Part shown: piece after piece, positions 10,325 through 48,600 of the stretch
Position numbering within the stretch: position 1 is the stretch's first letter
Layout: every line of letters begins with the position of its first letter
The notes under the pieces: generated by a model
Database searches by the model: none
What the model saw: the letters and a program-made list of their open reading frames with translations, nothing else
Told to the model about the DNA's origin: nothing
Made by a program: the position numbers and the translations under genes
DNA from: Bilabrum cf. latius
Lineage: Eukaryota
DNA length: 64,000 nt
Direction of reading: 5' to 3'
Assembly (NCBI GenBank): GCA_965178125.1
Contig: OZ237739.1
Span: 1,426,001 to 1,490,000 of the forward strand

Positions 10325-10479
10325 GGCGCTGATCGTGCACGTCACCACGCTGAAGTGGCGACGAGCCGGCTGCGGGAAATTGCCACTGTGAGGAACGTTC
10401 CAAAATATTGTATCGAACCTTTTGGTTGTAGCGTGCTTTAGATAGCGAACCAAGAATTCGGGGCAATATTGTGACCGCC

Positions 10480-18600: not shown

Positions 18601-18809
18601 ACCACCGATGGCACGAGCGCGAATATCCCTAGAACGAGCTGCACAGCCACGAGGGCTGACGCACCTGGGTTAAGCAAGGGCGCGCGTGAATGGCAGGAGT
18701 AGGAGGCCACCTCCAAGATGTGAAGGGAGTGCATCAGCACGGTCGTCAGCACACCAAGGGCATACACACTGGTTGCAAACCACAGAGGGAGCAAGGATCC
18801 CTTGCAGTG

Positions 18810-20210: not shown

Positions 20211-20250
<40 letters not shown>

Positions 20251-21298: not shown

Positions 21299-21327
21299 GT
21301 GCAGCAATGGCCCGATAGCCACCATGA
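19021..21327 (+). CDS. Insertion-encoded ORF of about 768 aa with no recognisable domain (possibly a gag/ORF1-like retroelement protein); runs off the element and stops in host sequence
   Basis: ATG 19021. Track ORFs 19096, 19684, 20086 and 20626 are all in this frame, separated only by TAG (19081, 19447, 19660, 20056, 20299, 20518, 21136). Contains an acidic tract and a poly-Ser tract. First TGA is 21325-21327. Confidence 0.62.
20212..20250 (+). repeat. (AGC)13 microsatellite encoding poly-Ser
   Basis: Direct reading of the sequence. Confidence 0.9.
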
Positions 21328-26912: not shown

Positions 26913-28600
26913 TCAGATGTCTTCCTATGGGTCTGATAGCATTGGGGGCTTCTTTCCTCCGATCGCGTCGAACGCCTAGGTCTGCTTGCTGGCCAACACA
27001 GCCGCCGCCCCCCTGGCCGCCCGAGGCGCGTCCTCCGCGTCTTCCCCCTCGGCGTCGATCTGCGCATCGGAATCGGGAATTTCCTCGCCCATCGGATCGG
27101 GGGCGACATCAACGCCCTATTCTGCGTCCATCATCGCGGCAGCCGCGCCCTTTGCATCCCCGTCGCCCGCCGCGCCCCCCTCGTCCTCGTCGCTCCCGTC
27201 GCGGAGCCACCCCCGGTCCTCCGCCATGGCTCTCGCAAACGTCTCTTGGTAGTCCATTCCCTTTTGCGTGGGCAGCCTCGTTCGGCTCGATCTGCGAGAG
27301 GACCGGTGCTGGGGGTCACGGGACCGCTTCGAGGCGTCCGCCAGTCCTTCCTCGTACTCGTCCTCGCTGCTGGACCAATCCCCTGCCTTGCGCGCTGCGG
27401 CTGACCCCCCCCCCCCCCCCCCCCGCCTTCCTGTTCCGCCCTTGACCCTCCCCCTGCTCGGCCTGCCTCTGAACCTCCCCTGTCTGCCCCTCGTCCGCCC
27501 CTTGCTGGTGCCGTCCGAGGCAGGATTCGAGCCTCTCGCAGGGGCGGCAGCCGCGCCTGCTCTGCCCCCCCCCCCCCTCCGATGGTGGGGCGAGCGATCC
27601 GCAGCCGCTTGGTGACGGTGGGGTGGATCCGCGCCCACCACGAGTCCCCTCCTGTTGCTATGCAAGCCCTCATGTACTCCGCCTGAGGGTGATGCCCACG
27701 ATGCTCTCGCCAGGCGCCAGAGAAGGTCCGCCCCCGTTGAAGTGTACTCCATCAGCAGCTGCCACCCGAACTTCCGGAGCAGCTCGTCGTCACATTTAGC
27801 CAGCAGCGGGGGCAGCAGGAACACCAGCCGCCCCATGCTCCCGAGGCGATAAGCCTGCATTCGCAGGCCCACCACCACGGGACCCGCCAGATTCTGCCCG
27901 AGGCCTGCCATGCGGCGCGCGTCATCGTCCGCCTCTTCCGCCTCACCCTCCTCTACAGCCCCTTCATCCTCGCCCCCCCCCCCCCCCCCCCCCATCCCCT
28001 CCTCCTCGCCACCACCCCCGCCCCCTTCCTCGTCTCCGTCCATTCCGGGGCGCCCCCTACCTCGCCCCCTCTCGGCGACAGAAAGGTAGTCCGAGGTCGC
28101 CGTCCGACGCGCGGCATGCTCCTGCCGCACGGCCTCCCTGAGGGCCACAAGCAGCACGTCCTCGGGGTCCCTGTGCTAGAACCGCTCGTTGTCAGCCTCG
28201 CCGCAGCGACACGCGCCATCAGGCTCGGCAACCGCAGCAGTCGGCACATGGCGCAGGTGGCGCGGAGGACGTCTTCCTGCGAGACGCCCTATACCAGGGG
28301 CGTCGCCGTCCGAACCGCGGCCGCCAGCAGCGACACTCAGGCCCAGCCCACGGCGAGCGCCAGCACGGACAGGGACGGCGCCTTGCGCGCCATGCCCTCA
28401 TGCCCAGCCCCACCACCCCGCTCAGGGCCTGCACACCGCTGAGCACGTCGGGGGGGGCGGGGCCTGGCCGTCGTCCGCCCCGCCGGAGGCACCTTTACCC
28501 GGAGCCTGTGCGGCCGCAGACGCAGCAACCCTGCAGACAAAAGAAGTAGAGGCCCCCATCTCTGTCGCCTGCCCGGACTTAGAGCCATGCCTCAAATTCT
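26913..28600 (-). pseudogene. Degenerate ORF inside the TIR element (acidic and Gly-rich, unknown function); upstream boundary approximate
   Basis: One frame is open from about 28390 to TGA 26913 with TAG read-through. The most protein-like upstream sequence lies in another frame that contains a TGA at 28337. Long C homopolymers could also hide assembly errors. Confidence 0.4.
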
Positions 28601-29521
28601 TTCACTGTGGGGCAGATATCCCGAGTTCCAGCGATGTTGTACTCGTACATGCCAAGGGCAACCAGACAGGCCGCCAGCACGCCGAGCGCGGAGGCCCCCG
28701 TCCCGGGTGTGCCTGAGCTCTCATACCCCAAGCTCTCGTCCAAAGTAGATTTTTTCTGCATCGTACATGATGGTAGGAAAATGGGCTGCACACATCGCCG
28801 TAAAACAGAGAAAAGTGGGAAATCACGCAGTTCGAGACCACGAAAAGGCTCCGACTTGCATCGACAATTGCAAAAAAGTATCATCTTCAAAATCCGCGAA
28901 ACTGGGTACATCTCTTTAAAACTTCAAGAACTAAGTAATGGTCCCGGTGGAACAATCGCCCCACCAAGACACGCCGAGCGCAGCGCAAACGCGCACGGCC
29001 CCGAACCCCCAAAACTACGACCTTGCGGTAGTGGCGATGGCTTCTGAGTGGAACATCACCACATATACGGCCCCAAAAGGATTAAATTAATATCTTACAT
29101 CAATCAACGGCGGAATCTTCAGCGTGGACCCAGATTTGGCTGCGCTAGAGGCGCTGGCAGATTTGCGCCTGCGCTCGGTTGCCATCTCCATTCAATCCGG
29201 GGGGGCTACGCGAGATCTGCGCGAGACAGAGAACGATGGCCCTTAGACGATTTATTACGGCAAAATTCAAAATATGGGAGAGATACTTTTTCTAAAATTG
29301 CCTGTAGCCCGAGAAAAGCGGGCGGCAAGCCGACACCAGGAAACGGCCTAAATCACTCACGAAGACCGGGCAAACGGCCTACGCTTCGAGCCTCAGCGGG
29401 CGCAGGCATGGCGATCCGATTTTCATACCATGTAAACTCACATTTGCCGCAAGAGAATCACCATAACCCCATCGTGGACGGAGGTCGAGTGCCGCAAAGT
29501 TTCAGATTCCCGTCCGGGGCC

Positions 29522-29566
29522 GCCAAATTAGGTTCCGCTCACGCTATTGTAGGCGCGCGGCGCTAC
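29522..29566 (-). repeat. Right 45-bp terminal inverted repeat
   Basis: Exact inverted match to 26306-26350. Confidence 0.93.
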
Positions 29567-30082
29567 TAAGGGCACCCTGCACTGAATGTTTACGTTATAA
29601 TGGCATCGTGCCGATCGATGTCCGGCGGTATGGATGACTTGACGCCAGCTACGGCAGGCGGGACTTGCCCCGGCGCAAATAGGCCTCTCAAACGGATAGG
29701 TTGCCAGAAAGGCTGGATTATTTTGAAAGCTACGTATACTACGCGTCACAAACTCGAGCACACACCAGCACTCCACATGCAACAGGAGACCGCGCCGGGC
29801 TCGCCGCGCATTTGGTTGCGGAACCACTATACGAGAATTCGAGCCGGTCCACGTTGCCTTCACGGGCGACTCATGGCCTCTCGAAACGGGGCCAGGGCGG
29901 CCAAGCCCACTAGAAAAGACCAAACCTGGCAGTTCCGCCTTGGCAAGCGCCTTCGTGACGGCGGTTGGCCGCAGTGGGCGATCGGGATGCTGTCGGCAGC
30001 GCTTTGCACGTAGCTTGGAGCTTATACTTCTGGTCCAGGCGGGCCACAAGTCCCGAGGCGCTCATGTATTCTATCTATATGT

Positions 30083-32473
30083 ATGTGTTTTCTCACGCTA
30101 GGGCTAGTAGTGTCTCTGTTTGCCCTACTGTCAATTCGTCAGCTCGGCGTTCACGATACACTGCGCGAGATCAAGAACTGGACACCGGGCACTCTGGAAC
30201 TAGATGATGAAGTGATTATGGCACCATTTCGATCGGTGTTTGGAGATGACAGCGGATTTGATGACTTAATGCCAGCTACTCCAGGAGAAGTAGAGCCCTC
30301 AACCCCACCAGCTCCAGCCGAAGCAACAGCGCCAACCAGTGTTTCCAGCGTCAGCAGCGCGGAGGTTGGCAGCGCAGTCGCGCCCTCCATAGAAGACTAC
30401 GCTAGGGCAGAAGAGCTGTACGGCGAAGGGTCCACGGCGGCGGATGCCTCGGCCCAGGACCCTAGGCGAGCAGCGCTGCTGGAGCACGCCAAGAAGGTCC
30501 AGCAGCAAGCGAGCGAGGTCTCCAAGCCAAAGAAACTGGACCTGGAGCCTGATTTCACCCCGATGGCCACTCTGGACGACATGCAGCTGCGTGGAGCCCG
30601 CTGCTTCAAGTCTTGGTTCAACGCGAACAAGGCGGGCCAGCCCTCGTGCTTCTCCCCCCAAGGAGTGCCATGCCCGGTGGACCACACCCCGGAGATGCTG
30701 GACTCGGCGCAGAACGGCAACCAGGCCACCTGCCTCGATACGAGCAAGTATTTCTGCACCATACAATGCAAGGGAGTGGACGAGGAGACCGCGTGGTCTG
30801 CTTCGCCATGCGGCGGTGAGAACCAGATCGCCTGTCCCCCCGTGCCCTCGGAGGTGCCAAAGGACGATCCCAGGCGCAAGCGCAAGACGTTCGGCCTGCT
30901 GCCGGGAGACGACGGCGAGGTTGATGACCGCTTCGGCAGCATCAAGAAAGCGGAAGAAGCTACGAAGAAGTGGCAGAGCGAGCATTCGGAAGAAGCGACC
31001 AAGGCCATGCAGGCGAAGAAGCAGCAGGACGGGAGGAAGCACCTGTCCGAGCAGGTCAAGGAGGGCTCCCCAGAGGCCGCCAAGAAGCTGGGGTGGGTAA
31101 AGGGGTCCGCGGGCGGGCTCCCCGCAGGCACTCTGGTGAACCTCCAGGGCCTGCAGTGCGAGCTGCTAGACGGCAAGGAGCGCTGCTTCTTGCAGGACTC
31201 GCAGGGGAGGGAGCTGTGCCCCGAGCACGTGACGGCGAAATACCTAACGGAGGCACATGGGCAGCAGCTCTGCACGGAGGAGACTCACTTCTGCACGGTC
31301 ATGTGTCAAGAGGGGGTGAAGGACATCCGGTGGACTGCCTACGAGCACGCCTACTGCAAGCAGAACAGGGATGCGTGCGTGGACGCGCCTCCGCGCACTC
31401 CCGTGGACAAGTTCTGGGTCAAGCCATGGTCAGGACTGCCCCGCATGCGCAAGCAGTGCGAGGACATCGGGTACAGCGAGCAGCTGGCCAGCAAGCAGAG
31501 GAAGCAGGGGGCTGGAGGGGGCGGGCTCAGGGGATCAGCTCAGGGAGGGGCCGGTGTGGGCCCGTTGCAGGCGGGATACGACCCCGAGGAACTCACCGCG
31601 ATGGCATCTCCTGCCGACCTCTCCCAGGTGAGCGTGGGCATTCTGACTCGGCCGGGGGAGGAACCTACGCTGGGCGACACTCTGCAGACGTACGACGAAG
31701 GGGGTTTCTTGGCGCGCATGGGCGAGGTGAACGTCCTTGTGAACGGGCAGTCCGCCAAGATGGACGACCTGCTGGGCAAGTACGAGGCCAAGTACCCTGA
31801 TAGCTTCCACGTGACGAGGGAGAAGGGCAACACAGGCATCGCTTTGGGCATCAACAAGCTCGCCTTCATGTCGGAGAAGCCGTATTTCTTGTTCCTCGAG
31901 AAGGACTTCAGGCTGGTGGATCCTTGGGGGTGCGCGCACGAGCAGCTGGCCCGTGGGATCGAGCTGCTCAAGGCAGGCACGGCGCACGTGATCCGATACA
32001 GGTCCAGGGACCGGGCGGGGCGTCCCAACTGGGCCGAGAAGATGTTCGCGGGTCACGAAGACGACGTGTTCAAGAGGCAGAACAACCTGTTCTGTAACGT
32101 GTACTATTGGCTGAAGCGCCCGGACCAGCGATGGCCGGACAAGATCTGGCCATGCGAGCAGGCGGACGAGGAGGCGCTGGTGGCCAACGAGGAGGCCGAG
32201 TCCTTGCCCGCGGGGGAGGGCAGGAGGAGGAGCGCGTTTTTCTGCAGCAAGGCGTTCTACTGCAACTGGACGAACAACCCGTTCCTCGTGGAAGTGGCCT
32301 GGTGGAAGAAGGAGTACGCGGACAAGTTCAAGGACTTCAAGCACCACAGCCCCATCAAGGACCTCGAGTACTACATGAACTGGGAGCCGGGGGCGTGGAA
32401 CGACAGGCCCTGGATCGTGGCGCAGGGCGACGGCCTCTTCAAGCACCAGGACAGGAATAACCCCGGTTTCTAA
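30083..32473 (+). CDS. Type II membrane protein with two Cys-rich modules and a C-terminal GT-A glycosyltransferase-like domain; start may be upstream (e.g. ATG 29987, reading through TAG 30011)
   Basis: N-terminal hydrophobic anchor, then GT2-like features VSVGILT..TL..TLQTY, GNTGIALGINKL and YFLFLEKDF. Strongly biased GC3. Ends TAA 32471-32473, followed by an abrupt shift to AT-richer sequence. Confidence 0.7.
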   Translation: MCFLTLGLVVSLFALLSIRQLGVHDTLREIKNWTPGTLELDDEVIMAPFRSVFGDDSGFDDLMPATPGEVEPSTPPAPAEATAPTSVSSVSSAEVGSAVAPSIEDYARAEELYGEGSTAADASAQDPRRAALLEHAKKVQQQASEVSKPKKLDLEPDFTPMATLDDMQLRGARCFKSWFNANKAGQPSCFSPQGVPCPVDHTPEMLDSAQNGNQATCLDTSKYFCTIQCKGVDEETAWSASPCGGENQIACPPVPSEVPKDDPRRKRKTFGLLPGDDGEVDDRFGSIKKAEEATKKWQSEHSEEATKAMQAKKQQDGRKHLSEQVKEGSPEAAKKLGWVKGSAGGLPAGTLVNLQGLQCELLDGKERCFLQDSQGRELCPEHVTAKYLTEAHGQQLCTEETHFCTVMCQEGVKDIRWTAYEHAYCKQNRDACVDAPPRTPVDKFWVKPWSGLPRMRKQCEDIGYSEQLASKQRKQGAGGGGLRGSAQGGAGVGPLQAGYDPEELTAMASPADLSQVSVGILTRPGEEPTLGDTLQTYDEGGFLARMGEVNVLVNGQSAKMDDLLGKYEAKYPDSFHVTREKGNTGIALGINKLAFMSEKPYFLFLEKDFRLVDPWGCAHEQLARGIELLKAGTAHVIRYRSRDRAGRPNWAEKMFAGHEDDVFKRQNNLFCNVYYWLKRPDQRWPDKIWPCEQADEEALVANEEAESLPAGEGRRRSAFFCSKAFYCNWTNNPFLVEVAWWKKEYADKFKDFKHHSPIKDLEYYMNWEPGAWNDRPWIVAQGDGLFKHQDRNNPGF

Positions 32474-33611
32474 TGTGCGGGCTTTGGCCTCTTGGGTGTA
32501 GTACCGTCTCTGATTGAAACTGCTAAGCCGAAACCGGGTGACGTTTGTGCGGGCAACGTGCTAGCTAGCAGTGCCGGGGCCAAACGGGAAGTGTTGCGAC
32601 CATTGGCTTTAACGGCGTCATTGCGACCGCCTGAATTGCAAATCAAACAAACGCAAATTTTATTGACTATCGCGATAAACACATATAGTATGTTGTTATG
32701 CATCAACAACGGGCCCAGTTAGAGGCTTGCATGACAACAAGCGGCTAAGAACGGTCCGAAAGCCATGTCGATCTGCTGGGCGATCTAGTTGGGTGCTGAT
32801 TCGTGAATTGTATTTTAAATCAGATTCTTCTTTTCAAGACTAAGAACCCCGCCACTTCCCCACATTCGGCATTGTTTGGCGTATTACTGTTGAAGAATTG
32901 TGTGGGTAACCCTCACCCAGGATATTCCACTGCAGCGACTGCCGCACAGCATAAAAATTCCTCACCCGTCTTGTGACGTAAGTTGCATCGGCACTCTCCA
33001 CACTGGCACACAGCATTTGCGTCATGTGCGAGCAAAATTGCCTCAAGAATGTTTTGGGGATTCAGAGCTTCTGCTTCTTGATTGCCATAGTGCAAATGAC
33101 TAGGCTTGCTCGGCCATTGACAACTGGAGACTCGCCATCTATTTCGGATGCCAGGCAGCCCAACTCAGTTCCGGCCTTTGCCATCGCTTCCTCTGGATTC
33201 ATTGTCTGGGTATTCATCGCCCATGCTGCTCGCTGGTGGGAAGAGTGGTTTGCCGGAAAGGGGCGCACTCAAAACCAATTGATTTAGGATGCGGCTACTG
33301 AGAACTATTGCAGCTCACGCAATCGCCCCCTATCATGTGTACATGTATGTGCAGGATATGATCAAGCGATTTGTTGCTCTCGCTTGTGTTTGGTTGCCGT
33401 ACGACCGTTTTGGTGTGACGGAGGTCGACTGCTCAGGTCGCTCGGCTTCGCAACACACGAAGCGCCGTCAAACTCTGAGCCGACAGCGCGCAGTACCAAT
33501 GATAAACCGGCTATCGATAGGACATTGGCGCTCCTGAGTCGAGCAGGTCGTGCACAGGGTGGCGCAACATCGCATCTTGACCGTCAGACGGATTCGCGAT
33601 CGTGCTGCAAT

Positions 33612-36600
33612 ATGGCTACGCCCAGCCTTGGACGTGATGAGACCGCCGTGCAACCAGATCAGGGCATGAGCAGCTTTGAATCGCATGTTTCTACCATATA
33701 CTCAGGCCAGTCTTCGGCGAGGGGCAGCTCTGCGCTGAGCGAGGGCAGGCAGTTCAGCCTGAGGCGCCCCACCGCGCTCGCAAGCTCCAAGGAGGCAATA
33801 ACGGACCCGGCCCCGGCTCCCGTCCCGGACCCTTCGCTTGCTGGCTCAGTACCCAATGAATCCAACGCAAACCCCGCAGCATCTGCCGAGGCCGCGGAAG
33901 CCCTGAAACGAAGGGCCGCAGTGGCCGGGCTGCAGCTGACCAGCTCGGTGGCTGCCCCTCTGCTGGCCATGCTGACGCTCACATGCCTGGCCATGGTGCT
34001 CGACCTAGCCATCAGTCCGGGCAGGGGAAATCCCAAGATCACGATTGTGGTGCTGCTTTGGCCTGCGGTGGCCCCCTTTGACCACGAGCTGGCCCTTGTT
34101 CCCTGGACGGCGCTGCAGCTGCTGTACGCCCTGTGGACCACGATCCTGTTCGTGGCTGTGAGTCTGACGGGGGATGCGTGGCCGTTTGGGCGAGTGGACA
34201 TCGACGTACCTCCTGCAGAGCACAGGTACAGCTTCTTCCGGGCAGACGGGCTCAACGGTACTGGTCATTTGATGGATATTTGGATGATTGCTCTCTTTCT
34301 GCCTTGCATATACGTGATCATGCTAGGTCTGGAGTGGGAGTACCTCAGGTGGCGGACCGCCCTGGCCCAGCACTCTCTCGAAGTGTCCTTTGCATCGGCC
34401 AGGGAGCAGCAGAAGGTAGTGGTGCAGTCTGTGGCGCAGCAGGTGCCTCCATTCGCCAGGGAGTGCATGGAGGCGGGGGTGATGGCGTTCGAGGCGAGGC
34501 CAGTGGTCATGGCCGTGTCGTGCCAAAAGGGAGAGGAAATTAGGCTGCCAGCAAGCGAGTCCAATATGGTTGAATCGACTTCATGTGGTCCTGTAGCTGC
34601 CTTGTTGGGCGGAAGCAGCGTGGAAACTTCTGTGAAGCAGACACCCTTGGGCGTCAGCGTGGGCAGCACGGGCGCTAGCAGCAGCAGGAAAGCCGTGGTG
34701 GATGCATCTGCTCTATCCGACATCATGGATACGGAAGGCCATGGTCTGATCAGCAGTGAAACGCTCAACCGGGCTGCATCCATCACTGTCATGCAGGCTC
34801 GGTCCACTGTGCCCCAAGGGCACGTGCATCAGCTGTGCAAGTACTACCGGTACGCCAACACCACCAGCACGGAGGTTTCGATGGGAGCAGCAGCCCTTGG
34901 TGTGCTGTCGAGAGACTCGCGGAAGGCGATGTTCCGCATGAACAGGATACCATGGGCCAGAGTCAGTGAGGCCATGCTCGTGGATCGCTTGCCTGCAAGC
35001 ACCGCAGCTGCATCGCAGAGTCGGAGCGGCTTGTGGACTGCCGCCGCCGGCCTGCGCACCCCGGCCCGCTCCACAGACCCACTGCCGTACGAGTCGCGCC
35101 GCTTCGTGTCGACCTTCGCCTGCCTGGCTGCTCTGGAGCGGTTCCTGCTGGGGGCCATGCAGGCCAGGAGCAGGGGCGTGCTGCTGAGGGGCGGGCTGAC
35201 CTACCCGTCCTCGTCCCAGTGCGCGATGGTGGTGGGGCTGATGGGCCTGCAGTAGCAGCCTCACGAGTGGGCAGCATTCGGGGGCGGACTGTCGAAAGCC
35301 GAAGTTTATGCCAATGCTGCGATGCAAGTGGAGCAGGATCCAGCCATGGAGGAGCCATTGGCCGGGGGAGTCACGCCGCACACCACTGACTCCCTCTCTG
35401 GAGGCGTGCACGTTGTATGCACTACTGTGGAAGCGGCCACTCGGATCGTGCGATCCCTGCAGTTGATGCAGCGGGGCATCGACGCAGTGGTGCAGTGGTA
35501 CCTGGCCATCGCAGCTTCGAAGAAATCGGGTGTTGGCTGCAGTGCCAAGCAAGGGGCTGGCGGTAGTTAGCGCGGGGTGCAGGCACCAGGCCCATCTCTC
35601 CGATATAGAGGAGTGAATGAGGCAGAGAAAGACCCAGCAGTGGCTCTTTGGAGGGTGCAGGAGTTGTAGCGGTCGCTTGGTGTCGTCATCGGGTGGTTCC
35701 AAGGATCTACGGCAGCTGTCGGCAATGGACATGAGCTCGCTGTTCAAGACCAAACTTAGGCCGCCGATATGCCTAGCGATATTGGAGATGAGCAGACAAG
35801 GGATGGTGCCCGCCGTGTTTCTCTTGTAGCACCGTGTAGTATGTGTCCAGACGGCTCGTCCGCATCTCCATCCAAGCGCTACTCGGTGCGTGATATGCTG
35901 CTTGCCGTGGCGTAGGTGTGCTCAGCTGCTAGGCAGCCAATTGCAACTGGTACGGTATCGCATACGACTGAAGACGGATACCAAGACGTGGACGAAGGCA
36001 ATACTGAGAGCGAGCTTCCAGTTGCAACGAGCCAAACGTACGCAAATAATGCCTAGTCAGATGCTGTCAATATCCCAGGCTGGTTGCTGCAAGTGCTGCC
36101 TCACGACACGCTGAGTCAGCTTGGGTTGGGAGCCTCAAAAAGGGCAGTGCCTACTGGTGCTAATGCGCATGTATAGGCCCAGTATGAACAGAGTCAACAG
36201 TAGCCAACAGTGCTTGGTTAGAGTTGCACGTCTGTGCCAAGGCTTGGTGCCTTTGCCTCACTGGTGCTTCCTGGCTCATAGCAGAGTTTTCTTGATGTCA
36301 ACGACACGACCGGCCTGACTGTGCGTTCTGGCCTGCTGATGGCACTGCTGGGCCTGGCATCCTTGATGGCATGTATCTTCATCCCGCTGCAGGTGATCAA
36401 CTTGGAAGTGGCAGCTAAATTGATGTAGTGGTCCGATGCAGGGGTGGCATTTGGTCACTTCATCCCCATGCTTCCCCGGATGTTGGCCAGCCTTGCTCTG
36501 ATCTCTGTAGGCACCATGGCGCACTAGAAACAGCAGCTGCTTAGTATGGGCTTTGCCACAGCGATGTACGGTGCAACCACTGCATTCACGGTGCTGTACC

Positions 36601-39600
36601 AGCTACTGTTGGTACTAGAGGTGGTGCAGCAATCGTGCTTCGGACGCATGCCATCGATGAATACAGGGGCAAGTGTGCTTGTCACAGTTCAGCTTATCCG
36701 AGGAATAGCAGCTCTGTCTAATTCACACGCGATTGGGGCTCCTGTAGGTATCTTTGCGGCGATGCTCATCCCGGCTGGGCCATTCATCATCTTACAGGCG
36801 CTGCTGGAAGGGGGCATAGTCAGGACTCAGGCAGAAGCTGCCATCACTTGTCAGCATGTATGGAGTGACGAAGCACCTGCAGCTGGCTAGGATCGGATCA
36901 CATTGTCGCTGTTCTTTCTGTTCTTTGGCGCAGCGTTTACACTTCATTTCGTGCTGATATAGGTGGTTCGCAGCCAGGAGATGAAGGAGAAACTTCTATA
37001 GGCACACCGGATCGCCAGCTAGACCCGCAAAGTGTTGCGTTAGACCAAACAGCAGCTGCATTCGGCAGCATCTTCCATCATGCCTCGAGCTATCATCCTG
37101 GACCGCATCAGGCGCATCAGGCGAGATGCAGTTGGAAGCAGATTGAATGGACTCCTTAATTCACATACAGACAGACAAAGCGGCTACTTGGTGCCAGCAG
37201 CATTACATACAGCTGTAGGTGTCGATCTTGGCGAGTCAGTCGTGACTGCATTGCATCTGTGCGGGTACGACCGCATTGCAGACTTGGCGGGCCCCGTGGC
37301 TGCACTGGGTCTGCATCGACGGATCGGGACCGTTGTGGACGAGGTCTGTGCGAGGTATGGGGCCATTCGGGTGAGGGGAGGGGCGGGGCGCTTCCTGCTG
37401 GGCTGGTTCGAGAGCTAGGGGGAGAGCTCCTACGGGGGGCTAGGGCCCAGCAGTGCGCGGGCTACTAAATCACGTAAGGCCGGCTCATCAATCAAACGGG
37501 TTGCCATAGCCCGAAGCAAGATGAAGGAGCGAGCCAAGCCAGCGAGTGATCGGGCAGTCGGGTCTTCGTGGAAGGTGCGGGTGCTGCCAGGTGTGATTCG
37601 ATTGCTCGCACAGACCCGAGCCGTGCTGGCAGAGATGAGCATCCAGCTGCGGCCCGTGGTGGGACTGGCCGACGGCAGGGTGCAAGCCACATGGGTGGGC
37701 CGGGCCCCTGCCACGGTGCTGTACTCGGACGGCGGCAGGACGAAAAAGCCGCTGGCAGAGAGCCAAGGCATCGCTGAAACACTCTGTCGAAACGCATCCC
37801 ATGACATGTCGCAGGCAGCGCCAGGCGACTTTGGCCTTAGTCCCACACTTGCCTCCATCTTGCAGGCACAGCGGCCGGGTATGTCAATGGTGCTCTCGAG
37901 GACGCTGCCGCCGAGCAGGGTGAGTGCTGGATCCAACCAGCTGCTGGACTGGAGAGAACTGGTCGGTGCTGCGCTCGCTAGACGAGGGCGGGAGTCAAGG
38001 CTGCTGCGATATGAAGTTCAGCAATGCGTGAGTCTAGTGGTGGAGGTGTCGCGGGGCAGCAGTGCTGCGGAGGGATGCAGGGTGAGGGTGCTGACCCCGC
38101 TGTCTAATTCATCCGAGGTGCTGCGTGCATGGCAGGTCGTGTGGGCGTCGAGGGTGCGGGCGGTGGCGGCGCGGGTTGCCGGCGCACACCCCGAACTTTC
38201 AGCATCTGACACGCAGGCTCTACACACCGACACACCATCGTCGGAGCGGGCGATTGGCGTATCAAGCGAAATATCAACGCAGTTGTCAGGGTCGGAATCT
38301 ACAGAGATGGTTGATCCACCAGTGGAGTTATGGACTGCACAATGGATCGGTATGACGTGTCCTGCACCATCTGATGCTGCCGGTACCCTGCCAACCACAA
38401 GTGTTTCTGCTGCGGGTGACACGTTGGTTGCAACCAATAATTCACTAACCTTCGAGCCTCAGGATTCCAACACTGCAGAGCAAGGATAGTCTGTGTTTTT
38501 TTTAGTGCGCCCGAGCCAGCAGCTGCTGCTAGACATTAAGGCGAACGAGGCACGGAAAACAGCAATCATGGTGCGGAATGGTTTATTGCCATTATACTCG
38601 CAAGCGGGGGAACGCATGCCTCATTCTCACATGCAGGACTACACAAGACTCAAGGTGCTGGGCGAGGGCGGATTTGCTCGCGTCTACCTGGCTGCCCACC
38701 GACCCACGGGCCGCATCGTTGCCCTCAAAGTCAGTCGCAGTAGCAGCCACAAGCACGGACAGGCCAACCGTCGCCGTGGCGGCGCTGCTGCATCCAACTC
38801 TGCATCTTTCTCTGCCGGCAACTCAGCCCACCACGCCTCGCTTAAGGCTGACGTGGTGCGCGGGGAGATGCTGGCACTCATGCGGGCAGGCGTGCAGGAC
38901 GTGCCGGGGGTGTGCCGGCTGGAGGGAGTGGTGCTTGGCGAGGGCGAGGTGGGGCTGGTGATGGAGCTGATCCGCGGCGAGAGCCTGGCTGTCATGCTTC
39001 GGAAGCGGGGCGGCAGGGTGCGTCTGAGCGAGGAGGCGGTGCGAGTGGTGTGTCGTCAGCTGGCATGTGCTTTGAGCAATCTGCATGCGTGTGGAGTGCT
39101 GCACCGGGATGTGAAGCCATCGAATGTGGTGGTGGACGAGCTGGGACACGCCAGGCTGGTGGACTTCGGACTTGCCACGCAGGTTGAATCGCACGGTGGA
39201 CCGGGCACAGTCCCGTCAGACGACCACGTTGCAAGTTTTGCGGCCCAGGCGCAGCCCAAGCAAAAGGGCAGTATGGCTAGCAACTCGCCAAGTACATCTG
39301 CGATCGAGACATGGCGCACGTCAGCGATCGACAGCTCGGATGACCTTCACCTGGCCATGCCAATGTATGCCCCCGCGCAACGTGTCCCCGAGGCATAGAG
39401 GTCCACTGCTGCAGTAGAAAGGCCGCGCCCGGAACATGTCAGCGTGCTTCTACTCGCTTCATCCTGGGTAGGTAACCAGAGTCGCATCTCTGCTAGCATG
39501 AATGCCAGGGCCAAGCTGGGTGACATAGCCAGGCTCTTGGAGGCAGTGAAAATCGCGGATTACCATCCTAGGATGATATTGTCGGTTGCTGCCAGCGCTG

Positions 39601-42149
39601 GTGAGGCCGAGAGTATGCTGCACGATGAGCCGGCCATGTACGACCACGTGGTGGCTGTGGCGCTTCCAGTGGAATCAAGTGCTAGATCTAGTGGGCAGTA
39701 GAGTTGTGTGGACGCGGCTGTTCGGAGCGCCCGTGAGGCAGTGGGCCGGGCATGTGGAGTGTCATGGGCAAAGGGTTTGCCTGTATCTAGCACAAGTCAC
39801 TCAAATGCAGATACCTCGACGGCTCCTAGTGTGGAAGGGCTGGTATGGCCGGCTGAGCTGGACCGAGTAACAGCGGACAGCGCTGCCCCCGAGAGCAGGA
39901 TAGCCTGGCTGCGGGATGTTGCAGCCTCAATCGCTGCCGCTGCGACTGCGCGGCGCATCAAACTGGAAGCATCCATGTATCCACGCGCGAATCAAGCACA
40001 GCCGGAGGACGGCTTGGATCCTTCGCATCCCGCCGGTAAATCACTCACGCCCGGTCGACGAGGAACAGCAGACGACTGCAGTATGCGTTGGTCCTCCACG
40101 ACCTCTAGACCTGCGTCTGAGTCTAGTGCAATCTCTGCGGAAGATTCTGCCATGTACATTCCGCAGACACCCGGAAGCGCGCCCAGACCCCGCCAAATCA
40201 CTCGATCCACAAACAACTCTGGCTCCGGCTCCGACGTGTAGCTGGCCAGTGCCAGCGTCGACGGGCGCCCTCTGTCCCTGCTGCCCAGCCGGTCCAGCAC
40301 GAAGGCATCCGCAGACTCATCGCTGTCAATGCATGCATCGCCCAGTCTAGCGAGCAGCGAGGAGCCACTGCAATCGAGCTTGGAGACTCACAGGTCCGTA
40401 TCTGGCTCTAGACGGGGGGGTGCAAGCAGGCACATCACCCATGACTTTTGGCGGTCTATATCAGGACAAGCGGTGGAGCTGCTTGCTCTTGGGTCCGACT
40501 CGTCGCGAGATTCGAGCATTCACGATGGCAGCTCGCACGATTCGGGCTCTCCCCGCAGCGAGCACGAGCACGTGGTCGGCTGGGCCAGGTCAGTTGGCTC
40601 GAACCGATATCGCGGCGAGCAGCGAGGTGCAATCGGGACCTCAAAAGGGCCCAGAGCTGAGCTTGCTGGTCTAAGAGATGTGTCTGCTGCCGCCACTGTC
40701 GCCGCGGATTTGCATCGCGAGAAGCAGCCCTTCGTGGCAGGCATCGCTGGCACCCCTCTCTTCATGGCCCCCGAACTCTTCAAGCACCAGGGTTAGAGAG
40801 CCAGCGACTACTGGTCGTTGGGCGTGACGCTCTTCTGGCTGCTCGCTGGCAGGATGCCGTTCGAGGGCATCGGTGCCTCGACCCAGCTGTCTGCAGCCAA
40901 GGCGGGCCGAGTCAGCTGGCACCTGCTGCCGAATGACCTGAGCCATGAGTGCTTGGACCTGTTGCGGGGCCTGCTGGAGGTGCGCGTGGAGAAGCGGTAC
41001 AATGCCTCCGTGCTGGCAGCACATCCATGGCTGTTACCGGCCAGCGAGTCAGCACGCGTCGCATTGGGCAGGGTTGGACTAGCAGGGCAGCTGTCTCGCG
41101 CGGGACAGGACCCGGTCATGGAGCGCTGGTCTGTTGACAACCCATTCATGGACCCTGCTGGGGAGCATGAGCTCTTGGCCCAGCAGAGGCAACATGCAGG
41201 CCATGGACCTGTACATGGCAACCTGGCGGTCAAACCGACTTGCCTGCAGGGCACGGACCTTGAGCCCGGTAATGATCCAGGCGAGTCGGTGGTGGGGCAA
41301 GTTCACCGCACGCGACCGTATCCATCAGCAAGCAGTGATGAGGGATCCACTGCCGCTAGTGCAGCCACAAAGTAGGGCCCTCAGAAGTCCGTGCTGGCCA
41401 CACCATCTGCATGCATCATGCCATGTGACCCCACCCACTCACTGCTGGGCACTGCCTACACTCTGGCTCGATCAAGGCGGCAGCAACGACGGGCGCCTGA
41501 CAGGCTTACCACAGGCCGCAAAGCCGGCAAGGCCATCAAGCGCATGCAGAGGGAACAAGCCATCGAGATGCAGGCCAAGCACGCAAAAGCTGTGCTCACG
41601 CTGTATCTGCGCAGGCATCGTGTGCAGATTGGATTGGGCTTGCGCTGGATGCTTGGTGCGTCCGAGCTGATGGTGCATCCTGCCGTCCGCCGTGAGGGTG
41701 CGATGTAGGACCTCAGCAGCATCGGCATGGAGGCTGGGGCCATAACGACCGAGCTAGTGCGGTGCGAGACAGATGTGGACCTGCAAGTGCACGACGAGGA
41801 CTCCCGTAGACTGTGCGCGGAGCTGCGAGAAGCAGGCCCCGCAGGTGATAGTGGTACAGCTGGCGGTGGGGCTGCAGAGGCAGTCACACGCACCACGTCG
41901 GGCAGGACGCCGAGCTCTTCGTCTCCTCAGCTGACACCCTCGCTGCCTGGTTAGGCCGAGCCTGCGCCGAATGGGCAGGCATTCGCTGCTCCATTCTATC
42001 GCCCGCGCCGCGGGGCCGCGTCTGCGTTTGGACTGGCAGTTGCCTCGTTGCCGAGTGTGCTGGAGGGGATGCAAGAGGAAGACAGCTTGCAGTCTTCGGA
42101 GGGTCCGGACGGATCCGTGCGCAGAGATCTGGCTGATTTGGACAATTAA
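33612..42149 (+). CDS. Giant multi-TM / degenerate class III cyclase-like x2 / split AGC-type Ser-Thr kinase (paralogue B, 2845 aa, intact under TAG=Gln)
   Basis: Track ORFs 33384, 35322, 36546, 37080, 37521, 38493, 39444, 39708, 40329, 40818, 41391 and 41727 are all in one frame. By hand count there are about 26 internal TAG and no internal TAA or TGA. All kinase motifs are present. Ends TAA 42147-42149. Confidence 0.85.
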
Positions 42150-42220: not shown

Positions 42221-44167
42221 TCAAACGAATGCACCGTCTGGCTCAGGCCCTGTATTAGCCTTCGTGCCCTCGCTCGCTCGAACCAGCGGGTTTATTGACA
42301 CTTTTCCACTGCCTGGGCCTCGCCCTGGTGCCCCATCGCTTGATATATGGCCCCTGCCCCTCGAGCCCCCTTTGATGGCAGCCTGCACGATCCTCTCCTG
42401 CCTGGATGGATCACCCGCCCCTCTCCCTCCCGTCGGGCCCTTCCGCTCCATTGCCTCCCTCCTCTCCTCGGCCCGCCTGGCCGCAAGCTCCATCTCCTTC
42501 TGCCTCATCTTGGTCTCTTCCTCGCTACGGCTCACTTCCAGTCCATTCTTCCAGGCAGACGCCGACGAGTACAGCGGATGCGCGGATGGCATCTCCAGGG
42601 TACCGTCCCTCCCCCTCGCAGGCCGCCTCGTGGCGATCACCTTGAAGTAGTACCCCGCGAAGCACCCCGCCATCAGCACCCCCACGACGCTCAGAGACAC
42701 GATCACGGCCACGAGAGCCCCGTTGCTGTTACTCCCGTTGTCAGGCTCGTCCCCGCCACCACCTCCACCACCACCACCACCACCTGGGTTGCCGCCCGGG
42801 CCATCGTCATCCCCGCCACCCCCGGGCCCTCCCTAGCCCCCATCGTCGTCGTCCGCCCCGCCGGCCCCCGGATCAATGCAAGTTGCCGCTGCTCTCGCCG
42901 CGCTGGGACAGAGGCCCGGCAGCTGTCCCGCGCACAGACCAGGGGAGCATCCCGCGCACGTCTCAACCAGCACGTACCCGGCAGTCCTTGCATCCTGCCC
43001 CAGCCCGCACACGCACTTGCACGAGGTCCGACCGGCGGGCACGGTGGGTGCAGGAGTGGGTGTGGGGGTGCTGGAGGTGCCTGGGGTGCTTGTGGGTGTG
43101 CTGGTGGGGGCGGGAGTAGTGGTGGCAGACGGTGTGGAGGAAGGCGTGGAGCTGGGGCTTGGGCTGGGGCTGGGTGGTGCTGTGGCGCTGGCGGTGAAAT
43201 TGAGCGCGGTGTCCGCAGCACAGAGACCCGCATTGCCGGCTCCATCGTCACAGTGCAGCACGAGGCAACAGTCCACGTCTTCCCCCAGCCCGGGGGTATC
43301 CTGAGGGGAGCACCACCCCACGGGGCCCGTGCCTCCTCCTGGTGGCGACGGCTGGAAGGGGATGCTCCGTGTGACGACTGCCTGGGAGAGCGGGGGTGCG
43401 AGCAGCGCTGCTCTGGGCAGAGATCCACCGCCCACGAGAGGCAAGGGCTGGCTGGCGTTGAGGTCGATCGGGAGCTGCAGCCTACCGTCCCTTGCCGCCT
43501 GGCAGCCGATGCTGCCCTGCATGAGATACACGCTCAGCGGGGCGCTGTCCCTCGACACCTGCACGCTGACTTCCTCGATCCGCTGGGCGCGAAGGGTGCC
43601 CCCCGTGAGGCTAGAGCCGTTGCAGCGGTGTACCACTGAGTTCCCCTGCTGCATCGCGTCTGAAAGGAACTCAAACGAGCACTCCTCGATGGCAGGCAGC
43701 TGGTCCGGCGGCTGCATGTCGATCGTGAACGACTGCACTACGACACCCGCGCACCCCTGAGAGTCGTCGCAGCGCACCTAAAAGCAACCTGGATAATTCG
43801 TGTTGATTCGAGATACGGTGCTGCCTGTCAGCTCCAGCACGGTCTCAGTGCCCTCGAGACTGCCGCCAGACAACCCAGGTATGGTCCCAGACTCATCACG
43901 GCCATTATCGCACGCCGAACCCTAGTCAACGGCAGTTGCTAGCCTTCTGTTATTAGGATTGAATACTCTGTACGTGAACCGAATGACTACATCGCTCTAA
44001 TAGGGGCTTGTGTCCGGGTCCGTATCGCAAGTCCACAGCACCCTGTCATCTCTTGCTTCCAGTAGGCTACTCAGACGCGCATTACGCACACGGCATCCAT
44101 CTGGCAAATAAACAGCAGCCTACAACTAAATCGACAGCACAACGGCTACGAAATATGCCTGCCTCAT
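42221..44167 (-). CDS. Type I cell-surface protein: signal peptide, Cys-containing ectodomain, Ser/Thr/Pro mucin-like stalk, Gly/Asp linker, single TM, cytoplasmic tail; six TAG
   Basis: Starts MRQAYFVAVVLSI. One frame is open to TGA 42221 apart from TAG at 44126, 44120, 43997, 43922, 43778 and 42833. Stalk PSPSPSPSSTPSSTP; TM ALVAVIVSLSVVGVLMAGCFAGYYF. Confidence 0.75.
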
Positions 44168-44439
44168 CGGAAACGATTGATGAACCCAATTTAGGTTTCG
44201 AAGTTGATCTGCAGCCTCGGTAGCAGTTTTTGCGGCTGCTTGGACGCAATAAATGGTCTATATTCACAACTATGTTCCGGGTCACAGGATTTTCAATGAA
44301 AATGCTTCTAACTGGCCGATTCTGTTTCGCAAGGTCGCGCCAGACCGGAAGAGAGAGCTGTTGGTCGCACCACCGTGAGGCAAAAATTCAGCAGCTGCAC
44401 CGCTCCCCCCAGATTCATCTGATTGGCCATATCTTGTTC

Positions 44440-45552
44440 ATGTCATCTCTTCGCCAGGCATGTAGACGCATTCAGCCGGTCTCAAAGATGATGGCGACTA
44501 GAATCGCTGCACACACTAGCATGGTTTCAGTGCCTCCGTTGAACATGTATCCGATGTATTTGATAACAACAAGAGACGAATTGTGGACTGCATCTCTCTC
44601 TAGAGCCACTGATGTCTTCCCAGAGAGTCCATACTGGGCATTCTGTTGGCCTGGCTCGTATGGAGTGGCGAGGCACTTGCTCGAAACGCGAAGTTTGGAG
44701 CTCGCAGGAAGAACGGTGCTGGATTTTGGCAGCGGGTGTGGCATTGGAGCCATTATGGCATGTAGGTTAGGGGCGTTACGTGCCACGATGAATGACATTG
44801 ACGCTGTTGCTGTTGAAGCTGGCTTTGCCAATGCGCGACTAGCAGCAATGATGGACATATTGAATGCGAATGGTTCGATCTAGTCAGACTCACGTACAAA
44901 CTCTCAACTTGAGGGTGGATACCGATTTCTAAGCGAGCAAGGTGTCGTTGCTAGTGCGACTGTCCACGACGAGGCCGAGCTCCACAATTTGTGGCAGTCC
45001 GTCCGGTCTGCCGGCCTAACACTCGAGGCACGAGCCGTGGGTTTGCCAGAGGTGCCAGCGACTGCAACGACCGGAATCGAGCCTACTGCCAGCCCATAGC
45101 CGGTCTCCGACTTCGAAGCCAGGGCCAGCGCGGCGGTGAGCTGGGCCAGCCGCCTGCGGGGCAGCACGGAGGACTGGATCGGGAGGCCTCTGCGGCCGAC
45201 GACTCGGACTGGAGCTAGCGGGCGCCCCACACAGGCACATCCAAAAGAAGATGAAAAAGAAGAAGAAGAAAGCAAGGATCAAGCACCTGCATCGAACGCA
45301 GTGGACGTGGTGCTCGCCGGGGACGTCCTGTACGATGCCTGGCTTCTCAAGCACGCGGTGCCATGGCTGGAGGAGGCCGCGGGGAGGGGCGTCACCGTGC
45401 TGGTGGGTGACCCGGGGAGGCACGGGATGGAGCAGAGGGCGCTGGACCGGGGGTGGAGGAAACTGGCGAGCTATGACCTCCCGGCGGACCTGTCCGACGT
45501 GACGAACGGGCTGCGGACCTCCCACGTGTGGCAGGTCGAGGGCGGGCGCTGA
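44440..45552 (+). CDS. SAM-dependent protein lysine methyltransferase, METTL20/ETFBKMT-like; TAG at 44881 and 45097
   Basis: PYWAFCWPGSYGVARHL, motif I VLDFGSGCGIGAI and NDID. Motif II DVVLAGDVLYD...VLVGDPGR is reached only by reading through both TAGs. Ends TGA. Confidence 0.82.
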
Positions 45553-45660: not shown

Positions 45661-48600
45661 TCACACTGCCTAGGTGTCCTGCTGCCCCACGGCCGCAGCA
45701 GCGCCCCGGGCTGTGCCTGCCTGGCCTGCTGCCACAGTCGCCTGTGCCTGTGCCTCATCATCCTACTCTTCAGCACCTTTACTTGCTCCAGTACCGTCCT
45801 TTCCCTGCCCCTTGCCATCGCTACCTTCTTCCTCTCCCTCTTCCGCCTCAAGCTCGTCCGTGCCCCAGCCCGCTTCCACCACGGGCGCACTCGGCAACTC
45901 GCCACCGCACACCTGAGCCAGCATCGTGCTGGACCGCATCCACAGTGGCTCCAGAGCCACGGGAGGGATCATCCTACCACCCCTGTGCGCACAGGAGGAG
46001 AAGAGGGCGGCGGCCCGCCGGCCCGTCCTCAGCAGGTCTCCGAACATGTCGCTCCGAAGCCAGGCGCGGGCAGGAGGGGAGTCGTCCGCCAGTCGGGCCA
46101 GGCACTCTGCAGTGCGATGCAGCACCCGAATGGCCCTCGCCTCTGCGGGGCCCAGCTGCAGAGGACCGCCGGGTCCTTGGGAGGAGGACGAGGACGAGCC
46201 TGCTGCAGCTGGGGTGCTGGCACCCGGCATCCATGCAGGCGGCTGATGCGGTCCTTGGAAGGCCCCCTCCATCTTGGCACCGTCCACACGTAGTCGAGAG
46301 GCGGGCCTGCCCTGCCCACGGGCAAGAGAAGGTCCCCGCTGCCTCTGCTCCTGCTGCTGCTACTCCTCCTAGTCGTCCTGAAAAAGTGCACGTGGCTCGG
46401 GCAGGGAGGCCAACTCGTCATCGTCACTTCCATCGCCACGATCCTTGCCCTCGGCTGCCCCGCCCTCATTGTCTGCCTCAGCTTCATCATCATCCTCTTC
46501 TTCCTCTTCTTTTCCTTCGCCCGCCTGGTCATAGCCATCAAGGACATCACCATGCAGTGCATCTGGAGGGGCCCAAGCCTCTTCCTCCTCCAGCAGCCGC
46601 AGCCGCTTCCTGGCCCACAGACCCAGGGATACTCCCAGCGCAGAGGCCCGTGCCAGCAGGTTGAACAGTGCACGAGCCAGCACTGGACCAGGCATGCGAC
46701 CCACCTGACGAGGCACGCTGTCCTGAGGTGACAACGCACGGGAGCTGACGGCGTGCTCGGCCAGCCGCAGCAGTGCAGACAGCACCCTGGCCTGACCGTC
46801 ACGCAGTTCCTGCACCGCCGCCCACGTGACCCGGTCATGCCCGCGCAACCCCACTCGAGCAGCAATCGCACCATGTGCGCTCATGCTATTACCTGGCCCC
46901 TCCCTGCTGCTGGTGCCAACCAGCCCACCCACCCCGGCATGCGGCATCGCAGATCCACCCCCCACTTCAGTGCTGTCTCTCTCCCGCCGCCGCCCCAGCC
47001 TCGACTTGGTACCAGCAACGGCTCCACCACCCCCGGCCGGAGCAACAGCGACAAGAGACTTGCCGCCGCCGGCGCGTGCGTGCACATCCTCACCATCCCC
47101 GACCGCCCCGCGCCCAGACGAGCCTCGAGCCGTGCTTCCAACTGGGAGCGCCTTGCCGCCGCACAGCGAGGAGACAAAGATCGATTTGGAGCGGAAGACA
47201 TGCCCCCCTCGCGAGCTATGACTGGCGATTTGCCTGTCTCCGTCCTTGCTCCGTCCAGCTCTCGCACTTGCACCCGGAGAAACATCCCCCGTGTGACGGG
47301 TGCCGAGCGTCTGCCCCGCCTCTGCCACCGCGCTAGCCAGCAGATCCACGGCGGGGCCGTTGCGCCCCCCCGCGCCCCGCTCGCTTCCGCCCATCGCTAG
47401 GGCCAGAGCAGAACGCCCCTGTCCCTTGGACTTCCCGGAGCTTGCCGCCCTGGCCTTGCGCCTCTGGTTGTGCACCGCCCGCAGCATCGACTGCACGCTC
47501 CGAGGGTCTGCCCCCTCCTCCAGCAGCCGCAGAGCCTGCTCCATGTCGGCCACCTGGTGCGAGTGCGAGGGCCGCCCGGGGGCCGCGTGGTGCAGCCCTC
47601 CCGCTCCGAGTCGTTCCTCATCCCCATCCCCTTCGCTGTGGCTGTCGCTGTCCGTGTACAGGCTGGCGGTGGACTCGGAATCAGAACTGTCGGATAGACT
47701 CGACTCGCTGCCGGAAGAAGAGCTGCTGCCACCGCTGGCCCCCTCGCTCGTGGTGGCTGCGACCCTGCGGCCCCCGTGGTGTTTGCGCCCCGACCATTCC
47801 ACGCTCTTGGAACCGCTGCCGCTCCCAGTCAGCCAGCCCAGGCGCATCCCGTGCCTGCGTCTCGGCCGGTGTGACGACGATGGCCCGGTCCTCGAGCGAC
47901 CGTCATCGGCGCCGCCGCCCTCTCCGCTCGCACTGGTCCCGCCCTCCCGCTCGATCACTTGGGCCACCGCCCCTTGCAGCCGGTGCAGGCCGCTGTTGCC
48001 CCGATCCTACGACGGAACTGCTGGGGTCTCGGCTAAACCTGCAGTATTTCTAGACGCAGATCGACTGCTGGCTCTCACACTCGACCTGCCCGCGCCTGTC
48101 CTCCTCCCCCTACTCTCCCTCGCCCCTGGCTGCCCCCCCCTCCTCTTCCACCGCATGACTTCCTCGGGGTCTTCCCTAGACCAGTCAATGCCGCCGTGCG
48201 CACTCAGCCCATGCAGCCCGGCTCCCCCCGCTGCGTCGTTGGCAGTGGTGCGCTCGCCTCGCAGGTATCGGTGCAGGTGGTGCGTCTGGTGCACTCGATG
48301 CGGCTATCCCACGCCTCTGGGGGGTCGGCCTGCTCCCGGCTGCTCCTGGCTCTCTTTGCGCCCATCATCCGGTCCCAACAGCCTGTCGTACTCCGACTCC
48401 GAGTCGGAAGAGCAGCTGCTTGCCAGCCCGGCATCTGCGATCAGGTGACCTGCCCCGCGGCCCACAGCGAAAGCCGCCGCGATGGCAGAGACCGTAGAGG
48501 CCTCGATGGCGCGGTGCCGCGTGGGCCCGTTGGCGCGGTAGTTCTCCTCCATGGAGGCAAGGGGGAGGCCGCGGTGTGACGAGTGCGTTGGCTCGCCGCC

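Follow-up and report, generated by a model that had tools for sequence, protein, structure and literature searches.

Genes of the window and their in-frame TAG codons

The window, which denotes the whole 64-kb stretch of DNA that was analysed, had a GC content of approximately 60%, and it was examined together with a 6.3-kb metagenome contig of a relative (L001; orthologue identity 77%). A GT2-like glycosyltransferase gene with Cys-rich N-terminal repeats was located on the forward strand (30083–32473; coding score 186.6; 320 homologues). This gene had no TAG from position 30095 onward and ended in TAA, and the Atlas feature search for it led to glycosyltransferase family 2-like clusters. On the same strand, the membrane-anchored protein kinase gene kinA (32982–42149; Pkinase, E = 1.2e-42) formed a stop-to-stop ORF of 3055 codons with 27 TAG and no TAA. 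The best-scoring coding part of kinA (33636–42146) comprised 2837 codons with 26 TAG, which agreed with the 2845 codons and about 26 TAG given in an earlier sequence-only reading of this DNA. A TAG of kinA at 40794–40796 (forward strand) was positioned in the kinase catalytic domain and was spanned by the Pkinase match. Two paralogues, both on the reverse strand and both with a TGA stop, corresponded to halves of a kinA-like gene: kinB (13122–18932; 10 TAG) to the C-terminal half and kinC (21164–25006; 14 TAG) to the N-terminal half.

In-frame TAG codons were also carried by other genes. The main exon of Hop/STI1 (10960–12678, forward strand; 779 homologues) matched the Pfam families TPR and STI1-HOP_DP, and had five in-frame TAG and a TGA stop. 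The conserved core of the acireductone dioxygenase (ARD) gene (62491–63249, reverse strand) contained a single in-frame TAG; the gene stopped at TGA, and its match to solved ARD structures (E = 2e-75) crossed the TAG. A low-complexity ORF of 3647 codons (45661–56604, reverse strand; coding score 478.8) contained 10 TAG, as counted before, and no TAA, and ended in TAG-GCA-GTG-TGA; the Pfam search of this ORF gave no family. Standard gene callers cut proteins at each TAG, so table 15 is needed for correct annotation; the proteins P0001 and P0121 are fragments that were cut in this way.

The X6 contigs were joined from 28755 to 29099 in a way that fits GT..AG-type splicing of the minus strand, and they kept unchanged two TAGs of kinA and five TAGs of the gene at 42221–44263. 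The RNA status of runs X5 and X6 is a guess, with X5 flagged as "probably DNA"; if X6 is RNA, the unaltered TAGs argue against RNA editing.

Usage of TAG, TAA and TGA

The coding sequence was evaluated via a test in which TAA did not delimit the ORFs: TGA was the sole hard stop, and TAG and TAA were scored neutral. Across the 16,615 codons of the 21 best-scoring coding segments, there were 104 TAG and two TAA, and the latter were precisely the two codons proposed as terminators (32471 and 42147). Extension of the segments past these two TAA gained just +1.8 and +0.5 score units. The sequence-only reading had claimed that no in-frame TAA occurred inside intact genes, and this held across all the coding codons, where no internal TAA was present. 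In 14 long ORFs, the CAA/CAG counts were 141/527 and TAG was found 105 times, i.e., TAG made up approximately 14% of the glutamine codons (105/773). According to the CAA/CAG ratio and the 105 TAG, approximately 28 TAA were expected if TAA was used like TAG, and the absence of internal TAA is far outside chance.

The number of ORFs of at least 400 codons increased from 13 to 26 when TAG was read through, and from 13 to 14 when TAA was read through. The sole extra TAA-containing ORF (62449–63765, forward strand) overlaps the ARD and zinc-finger genes in antisense orientation. In the flank test, a stop triplet was counted if the K codons on either side of it resembled coding sequence. The values for TAG were 15/892, 18/890 and 19/886 at K = 40, 80 and 120, respectively; the corresponding values were 0/393, 1/388 and 0/385 for TAA, and 1/1468, 0/1463 and 2/1459 for TGA. 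The lone TAA match was antisense to a TDH-like gene, and two TGA matches were stops separating two adjacent same-frame genes.

The 21 gene models had 116 in-frame TAG in total, and 19 of them ended in TGA. The remaining two ended in the TAA codons noted previously, at 32471–32473 and 42147–42149 (both forward strand), each of which closed a long coding frame. The TAA at 32471–32473 was located at the conserved C-terminus of the glycosyltransferase family: it coincided with the last alignment column, which was common to eight of eight homologues, and 15 of the 19 strong matches that reached the query end stopped at most 7 residues from their own C-terminus. Moreover, the L001 orthologue had TAA at the same residue. 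The coding score dropped to −0.084 per codon 3′ of this TAA, and the next in-frame TGA was 87 codons on. The RNA-like contigs over this gene, which came from two studies (29990–32631 for X5 and 29864–32663 for X6), stopped at 32631 and 32663, short of the in-frame TGA at 32732, and a DNA contig extended beyond; these contig ends are a weak hint that the TAA at 32471 terminates. For the TAA of kinA (42147–42149), kinB, which ends in TGA, stopped within 8 residues of the aligned position. Reading through this TAA added 384 codons, which scored −28.7 and ran antisense across the convergent gene at 42221–44263. It was shown that the coding interiors lack UAA and that UAA ends a gene at a conserved C-terminus, both here and in the related organism. 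These counts cover 64 kb and the 6.3-kb contig, and the genome may have rare UAA sense codons in other places.

Amino acid at UAG and alternative explanations

The L001 contig had 13 TAG and no TAA in 1,631 coding codons. The alignable TAG codons of the L001 orthologue corresponded to CAG in the window in five of five cases, and a sixth was in an alignment gap. In the kinase family, the TAG at 40794 (A2605 of kinA) paired with a CAG of kinB (B1483), and the flanks were 100% identical. T>C at position 40794 was found in seven contigs of X3 (depth 627.8 of 717.1), nine of X5, three of X6 and six of X8, and most other genomic copies of this segment read CAG. A further TAG–CAG correspondence was given by the paralogue pair E193 (TAG) and D136 (CAG), and one TAG with 100% identical flanks was common to kinC and kinA. 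P0001, a 97% identical relative, had Q at Hop TAG codon 423 and ended just before a CAG of the window. UAG was shown to be translated within conserved domains, with a CAG counterpart in orthologues and paralogues. The distant homologues gave little information on the residue at TAG, and the glutamine assignment therefore rests on the close orthologues and paralogues. At the five Hop TAG sites, Q was found in 2–10 of 120 distant homologues, which mostly had K, A, D or E.

These distant residues bear on the possibility that UAG encodes another amino acid, e.g., Lys, Glu, Leu or Ser, to which UAG is assigned in other codes that changed UAG alone. K was the commonest residue at two Hop TAG sites (65 and 95 of 120 distant homologues), the residue at the ARD TAG site was R in the close relative P0287 and I in mammals, and the paralogue pairs included one TAG/GAG and one TAG/TAT. 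However, CAG or CAA was the commonest non-TAG partner (9 of 45 paralogue pairs), TAG/AAG was absent among these pairs, and the TAG/CAG pairs held in all the orthologous comparisons, within identical flanks and across the multi-copy kinase family, so that an amino acid other than glutamine is very unlikely. A change of both UAA and UAG to glutamine (table 6 type), with UAA going unseen owing to its rarity at high GC content, is equally improbable. TAA was indeed the rarest stop triplet over all six frames (398 TAA, 895 TAG and 1473 TGA), and UAR-to-Gln is described as the commonest nuclear variant (PMC5304391). Nevertheless, the expected internal TAA codons were missing, the position of TAA matched the conserved C-terminus exactly in both species, and the sequence past either TAA of the window was non-coding. 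The standard code, with pseudogenes, assembly errors or unspliced introns interrupting the frames, was scarcely credible. Some introns exist, as indicated by the separate exon 1 of Hop (10456–10584) and the X6 joint; against this, the frames of up to 3647 codons had no TGA or TAA in spite of the 116 TAG, exact contigs from four runs had no joints at TAG sites, and the related species had the same pattern. The pseudogene, assembly-error and intron reading of the TAG-containing frames was refuted by the frame statistics.

The position of TAG near some gene ends was explored as well. TAG was found two codons before TGA at the end of the 3647-codon ORF (45661–45672, reverse strand) and in gene 19018–21327 (21316–21327, forward strand), and three codons before TGA in gene 26913–28397 (26913–26927, reverse strand). 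TAG two to three codons before TGA was thus observed in 3 of 21 genes, compared with 0.37 expected (Poisson P ~0.006), and TAG may still terminate at some gene ends. Context-dependent stop or sense meaning has been described for Condylostoma, the karyorelicts and, for UAA, Blastocrithidia; for the present DNA, a UAG that is read as glutamine in gene interiors but as a stop close to the 3′ end is supported by the three gene ends, but is unlikely. A TGA or TAA terminator was available in every gene model. Coding sequence or conservation extended past the last TAG in Hop, ARD and kinA versus kinB, and the GFV end common to the tandem pair 59214–60446 and 60512–61729 was located past the last TAG. 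Furthermore, frequent TAG termination would give random-length non-coding tails, whereas most tails after the last TAG scored as coding; beyond genuine stops, the median distance to a following in-frame TAA or TGA was ~25 codons. In line with the earlier statement, a TAG stop was required by none of the 21 models, with the three near-terminal TAGs as a nuance. According to the simplest reading, these may be former TAG terminators, past which translation now continues to a nearby TGA that serves as a back-up stop.

Overall, UAG is very probably a glutamine codon, and UAA (rare) and UGA (dominant) are the terminators, in the nuclear DNA of a GC-rich, gene-dense and intron-poor eukaryote. The uncoupling of UAG from UAA, which the sequence-only reading had proposed, was supported by the orthologous pairs (5/5 TAG to CAG), the CAG of the paralogues at the kinase-domain TAG, the TAA at the family C-terminus, and the lack of internal UAA.

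Significance and comparison with known codes

UAG would be decoded by a tRNA-Gln with the anticodon CUA. The C34 of this anticodon is unable to pair with the A of UAA. The eRF1 is predicted to have lost or weakened its recognition of UAG and to have kept that of UAA and UGA. Neither the window nor L001 yielded a tRNA gene, and no eRF1 gene was found within the 64-kb window. The pairing of such an eRF1 with a CUA-only tRNA-Gln is a standard deduction, which was likewise made in the report on Iotanema (PMC5304391).

UAA and UAG nearly always change together, and each uncoupled case is therefore a natural experiment, which informs how a release factor separates UAA from UAG and how a stop codon is captured. 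The UAG-only glutamine code type itself has already been described and is rare, being known from Iotanema, Protocruzia and phyllopharyngean ciliates. We tentatively suggest, at somewhat less than even confidence, that the present code may represent another origin of this type, independent of the others and not reported until now. It would belong to a GC-rich, TGA-terminating and probably aerobic lineage of at least two species (that of the window and the relative represented by L001, P0121 and P0287, with 77–86% protein identity), in which TAG and CAG interchange freely and old TAG stops are kept as gene ends of TAG, two to three codons and TGA. If true, such gene ends would be a visible footprint of stop-codon capture. 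The case is set apart from those described by its GC-rich DNA with TGA as the main stop, by the codon-by-codon comparison of two related species, and by the possible relics of old TAG terminators.

In code 15 phages, e.g., crAss-like phages, TAG is glutamine and suppressor tRNAs are carried; unlike these, the window belongs to the nuclear DNA of a eukaryote and has genes for Hop, ARD and kinases as well as spliceosomal-type introns. Codes with UAR as glutamine are used by Amoeboaphelidium protococcarum, hexamitin diplomonads, oxymonads, ulvophytes and many ciliates. The present code is similar to these in that the change from stop to glutamine took in UAG, whereas UAA is a stop here and glutamine there. 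Amoeboaphelidium was rejected as a candidate source of the DNA: its genomes were given as ~40% GC (PMC10608142), compared with ~60% here, and its NCBI proteins were absent among the homologue matches. The window was also unlike a ciliate macronuclear genome, with its 60% GC and genes of at least 3,000 codons adjoining on one 64-kb stretch, a combination that is untypical of ciliates. Among the ciliates, UAG-only glutamine codes were reported for two phyllopharyngean lineages and Protocruzia tuzeti (McGowan et al., 2024, PMC11687900), and the present code is like theirs in that UAG, not UAA, became glutamine, which is NCBI table 15. Other uncoupled UAG codes are listed in the same report (PMC11687900), i.e., UAG as Leu in the rhizarian exLh and as Ser in Scotinosphaera; UAG was reassigned and the UAA stop was kept in these as in the window, but the amino acid here is Gln (5/5 CAG).

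In the fornicate Iotanema spirale, the nuclear code has UAG as Gln and UAA and UGA as stops, as reported by Panek et al. (2017, PMC5304391). The codon meanings are the same here, and the predicted mechanism in both is tRNA-Gln(CUA) with an altered eRF1. UAG is a minority glutamine codon in both, at ~8% according to the Iotanema report (PMC5304391) and 14% in the window. Iotanema is an anaerobic endobiont represented by a transcriptome, and UAA is given as its dominant stop (PMC5304391). By contrast, TGA was dominant in the window (19/21), the DNA was 60% GC, and an oxygen-dependent acireductone dioxygenase was encoded.

Gene content of the window

The GC content of the window was approximately 60%, and eukaryotic genes with few introns were densely set on both strands. 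These genes encoded a PTEN-like phosphatase (1409-4963), the Hop/STI1 protein (Hop, 10960-12678), a GT2-like glycosyltransferase (30083-32473), acireductone dioxygenase (ARD), which matched solved structures (E = 2e-75), and one TDH-like epimerase, one kelch protein and one methyltransferase. The glycosyltransferase gene matched only GT2-like, phage-labelled clusters in the Atlas search. It also had the deepest cover by RNA-like contigs among the window genes compared, depth being a poor guide to expression. Three paralogous genes encoded membrane-anchored protein kinases, namely, kinA (32982-42149), kinB (13122-18932, minus strand) and kinC (21164-25006, minus strand); kinA was matched by kinC over its N-terminal third and by kinB over the rest. 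A plus-strand ORF of 769 codons with 8 TAG (19018-21327) was located between kinB and kinC and overlapped the kinC end, and no Pfam family was found for it. This arrangement suggests that an insertion split a kinA-like gene, or else that the ORF is a gene lying within a 2-kb intron.

A small ORF of its own, 5' of the main exon, encoded the first TPR helix of Hop (MVDPANVEQANKHKDEGN...; 10456-10960). Hence, the Hop gene is interrupted by an intron of approximately 370 bases. A 343-base gap (28756-29098) in one contig of run X6 had CT..AC ends, corresponding to a minus-strand GT..AG intron, and was positioned upstream of the gene at 26913-28397. Four tandem plus-strand genes (56563-61729) encoded a set of related proteins, all Q/P/G-rich and with a single membrane segment; the last two had long identical stretches in common and both ended in GFV. 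The region 45661-56604 had a strong coding score and encoded a protein of 3647 residues, in which G, A, S, R and E were abundant. No Pfam family was found for the tandem genes or for this protein. The contig depth of the DNA run X3 rose from approximately 42 to 150-800 at 40748-40832, 28500-29667 and 44852-45435, and the contigs carried many variant letters at 40748-40832. These three intervals are multi-copy segments, and the one at 40748-40832 represents the kinase core conserved in a large gene family.

In-frame TAG and TAA

Reading through TAG raised the number of ORFs of at least 400 codons from 13 to 26, and the opened frames included those of 3055, 3647, 1936 and 1280 codons. Reading through TAA gave only one extra ORF of this length, on the plus strand at 62449-63765 (439 codons). 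Considered as a TAA-containing gene, this ORF was rejected, being antisense to real genes and without a Pfam match. The 14 long ORFs contained 105 TAG, 0 TAA, 527 CAG and 141 CAA codons, and approximately 28 TAA were expected if TAA and TAG were used in the same proportion as CAA and CAG. Because these ORFs had been delimited by TAA, the codons were recounted with hard stops set at TGA alone. In this count, the 16,615 codons of the 21 coding segments with the best scores included 104 TAG and 2 TAA. Both TAA were those at 32471 and 42147, and extending the segments past them added a negligible amount to the score.

A flank test, in which coding-like sequence was required on both sides of a stop triplet, was positive for 15-19 TAG, 0-1 TAA and 0-2 TGA, and the exceptions were explained. 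The apparent in-frame TGAs at 63441 and 63309 were really stops that separated the ARD gene from a zinc-finger gene in the same frame. In the 21 gene models, TGA was the terminator in 19 and TAA in 2. The ORF, stop and codon tallies were repeated in the window, and the coordinates and counts of the sequence-only reading were right, as were its statements that intact genes have no internal TAA and that two genes end on TAA and the others on TGA.

Glutamine at TAG and termination at TAA

The residue encoded by TAG was evaluated through close relatives. L001, a metagenome contig of a related species (56% GC), carried a glycosyltransferase orthologue with 77% identity to that of the window. Its ORF had 404 codons in the standard code and, with TAG read through, was open for 830 codons with 6 TAG and 0 TAA. 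Five of the six TAG could be aligned, and all five corresponded to CAG in the window in a well-conserved context. The kinA TAG at 40794, which fell within the Pfam kinase match, was CAG in kinB with identical flanks, and, in four runs, position 40794 was C rather than T in the majority of the remaining copies of this multi-copy segment. Moreover, Q stood at a window TAG in a Hop fragment with 97% identity from a different assembly; the fragment stopped just before a window CAG. Distant homologues were uninformative on this residue because the TAG sites occupied variable, hydrophilic positions in them. Glutamine was assigned to UAG on the basis of these close relatives. A PH-like domain suspected after the TAG at 4721 had no Pfam match at E up to 1 and was not counted as evidence. 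The window glycosyltransferase gene (30083-32473) had 0 TAG in 792 codons, whereas its orthologue (L001:1-2490) had 6; therefore, the turnover between TAG and CAG is fast between the two species.

Gene ends of the form TAG-NNN-NNN-(NNN)-TGA were found in 3 of 21 genes, whereas the frequency of in-frame TAG predicts approximately 0.37 such near-terminal TAG (P about 0.006). Proximity of the TGA would be expected of old TAG terminators that are now read through and were kept only beside a close back-up stop. The same excess leaves as much room for some termination still taking place at TAG close to the ends of genes. Translation clearly goes on past the last TAG wherever the C-termini could be checked, that is, in Hop, in ARD, in kinA compared with kinB and in the tandem pair ending in GFV.

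The window glycosyltransferase ended in ...NNPGF-TAA. The last alignment column was common to all eight aligned homologues, which all ended there. Among 46 matches with E up to 1e-30, the best match reached the last nine residues of the query in 19, and in 15 of these 19 the match's own C-terminus was at most 7 residues away. The L001 orthologue had TAA at the identical residue. The coding score collapsed 3' of the window TAA (32471), and 87 codons separated this TAA from the next TGA in frame. RNA-like contigs from two studies ended 69-101 bases before that TGA, and one DNA contig continued. These ends give a weak hint of a stop at this TAA, the RNA nature of runs X5 and X6 being a guess. Similarly, kinB ended on TGA at most 8 residues from the TAA end of kinA in the alignment, and a read-through of the kinA TAA would append 384 codons that resemble non-coding sequence and lie antisense to the convergent gene. 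In L001, the gene downstream of the glycosyltransferase was not a homologue of kinA.

Decoding and comparison with known codes

The decoding of UAG without UAA was deduced for Iotanema in PMC5304391, and the same reasoning was carried over to the window. A tRNA reading UAG but not UAA would need the anticodon CUA and would most simply be derived from tRNA-Gln(CUG), and eRF1 would be predicted to show weakened UAG recognition. In Iotanema, the eRF1 change T32G faces the third base of the stop codon. The ARAGORN scans of the window and L001 gave no tRNA, and no Rfam match was found at gathering thresholds.

The highest identity of Hop to any named protein was 41%, and ARD was equally close to animals and plants (62-68% identity). 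The GC content of Nuclearia thermophila is 44%, compared with approximately 60% for the window, and the preprint on this species does not mention its genetic code. Amoeboaphelidium, an algal parasite reported with UAR as glutamine, was considered as the source and rejected, having genomes of approximately 40% GC, in contrast to this 60%, and being absent among the named NCBI matches of Hop and ARD. In the open main-text literature, this code was not found in any GC-rich lineage outside the ciliates, and the assembly may have a paper of its own.

According to PMC5304391 and PMC11687900, UAG encodes leucine in a rhizarian and serine in Scotinosphaera. The uncoupling of UAG and UAA proposed from the sequence was confirmed as an observation and is supported in the window by 104 TAG against 2 terminal TAA, by TAG/CAG exchange in the orthologue and by TAA at a conserved C-terminus. 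According to the same two sources, codes with UAG alone as glutamine have been described in Iotanema spirale, Protocruzia tuzeti and two phyllopharyngean ciliate lineages; therefore, this kind of code is already known.
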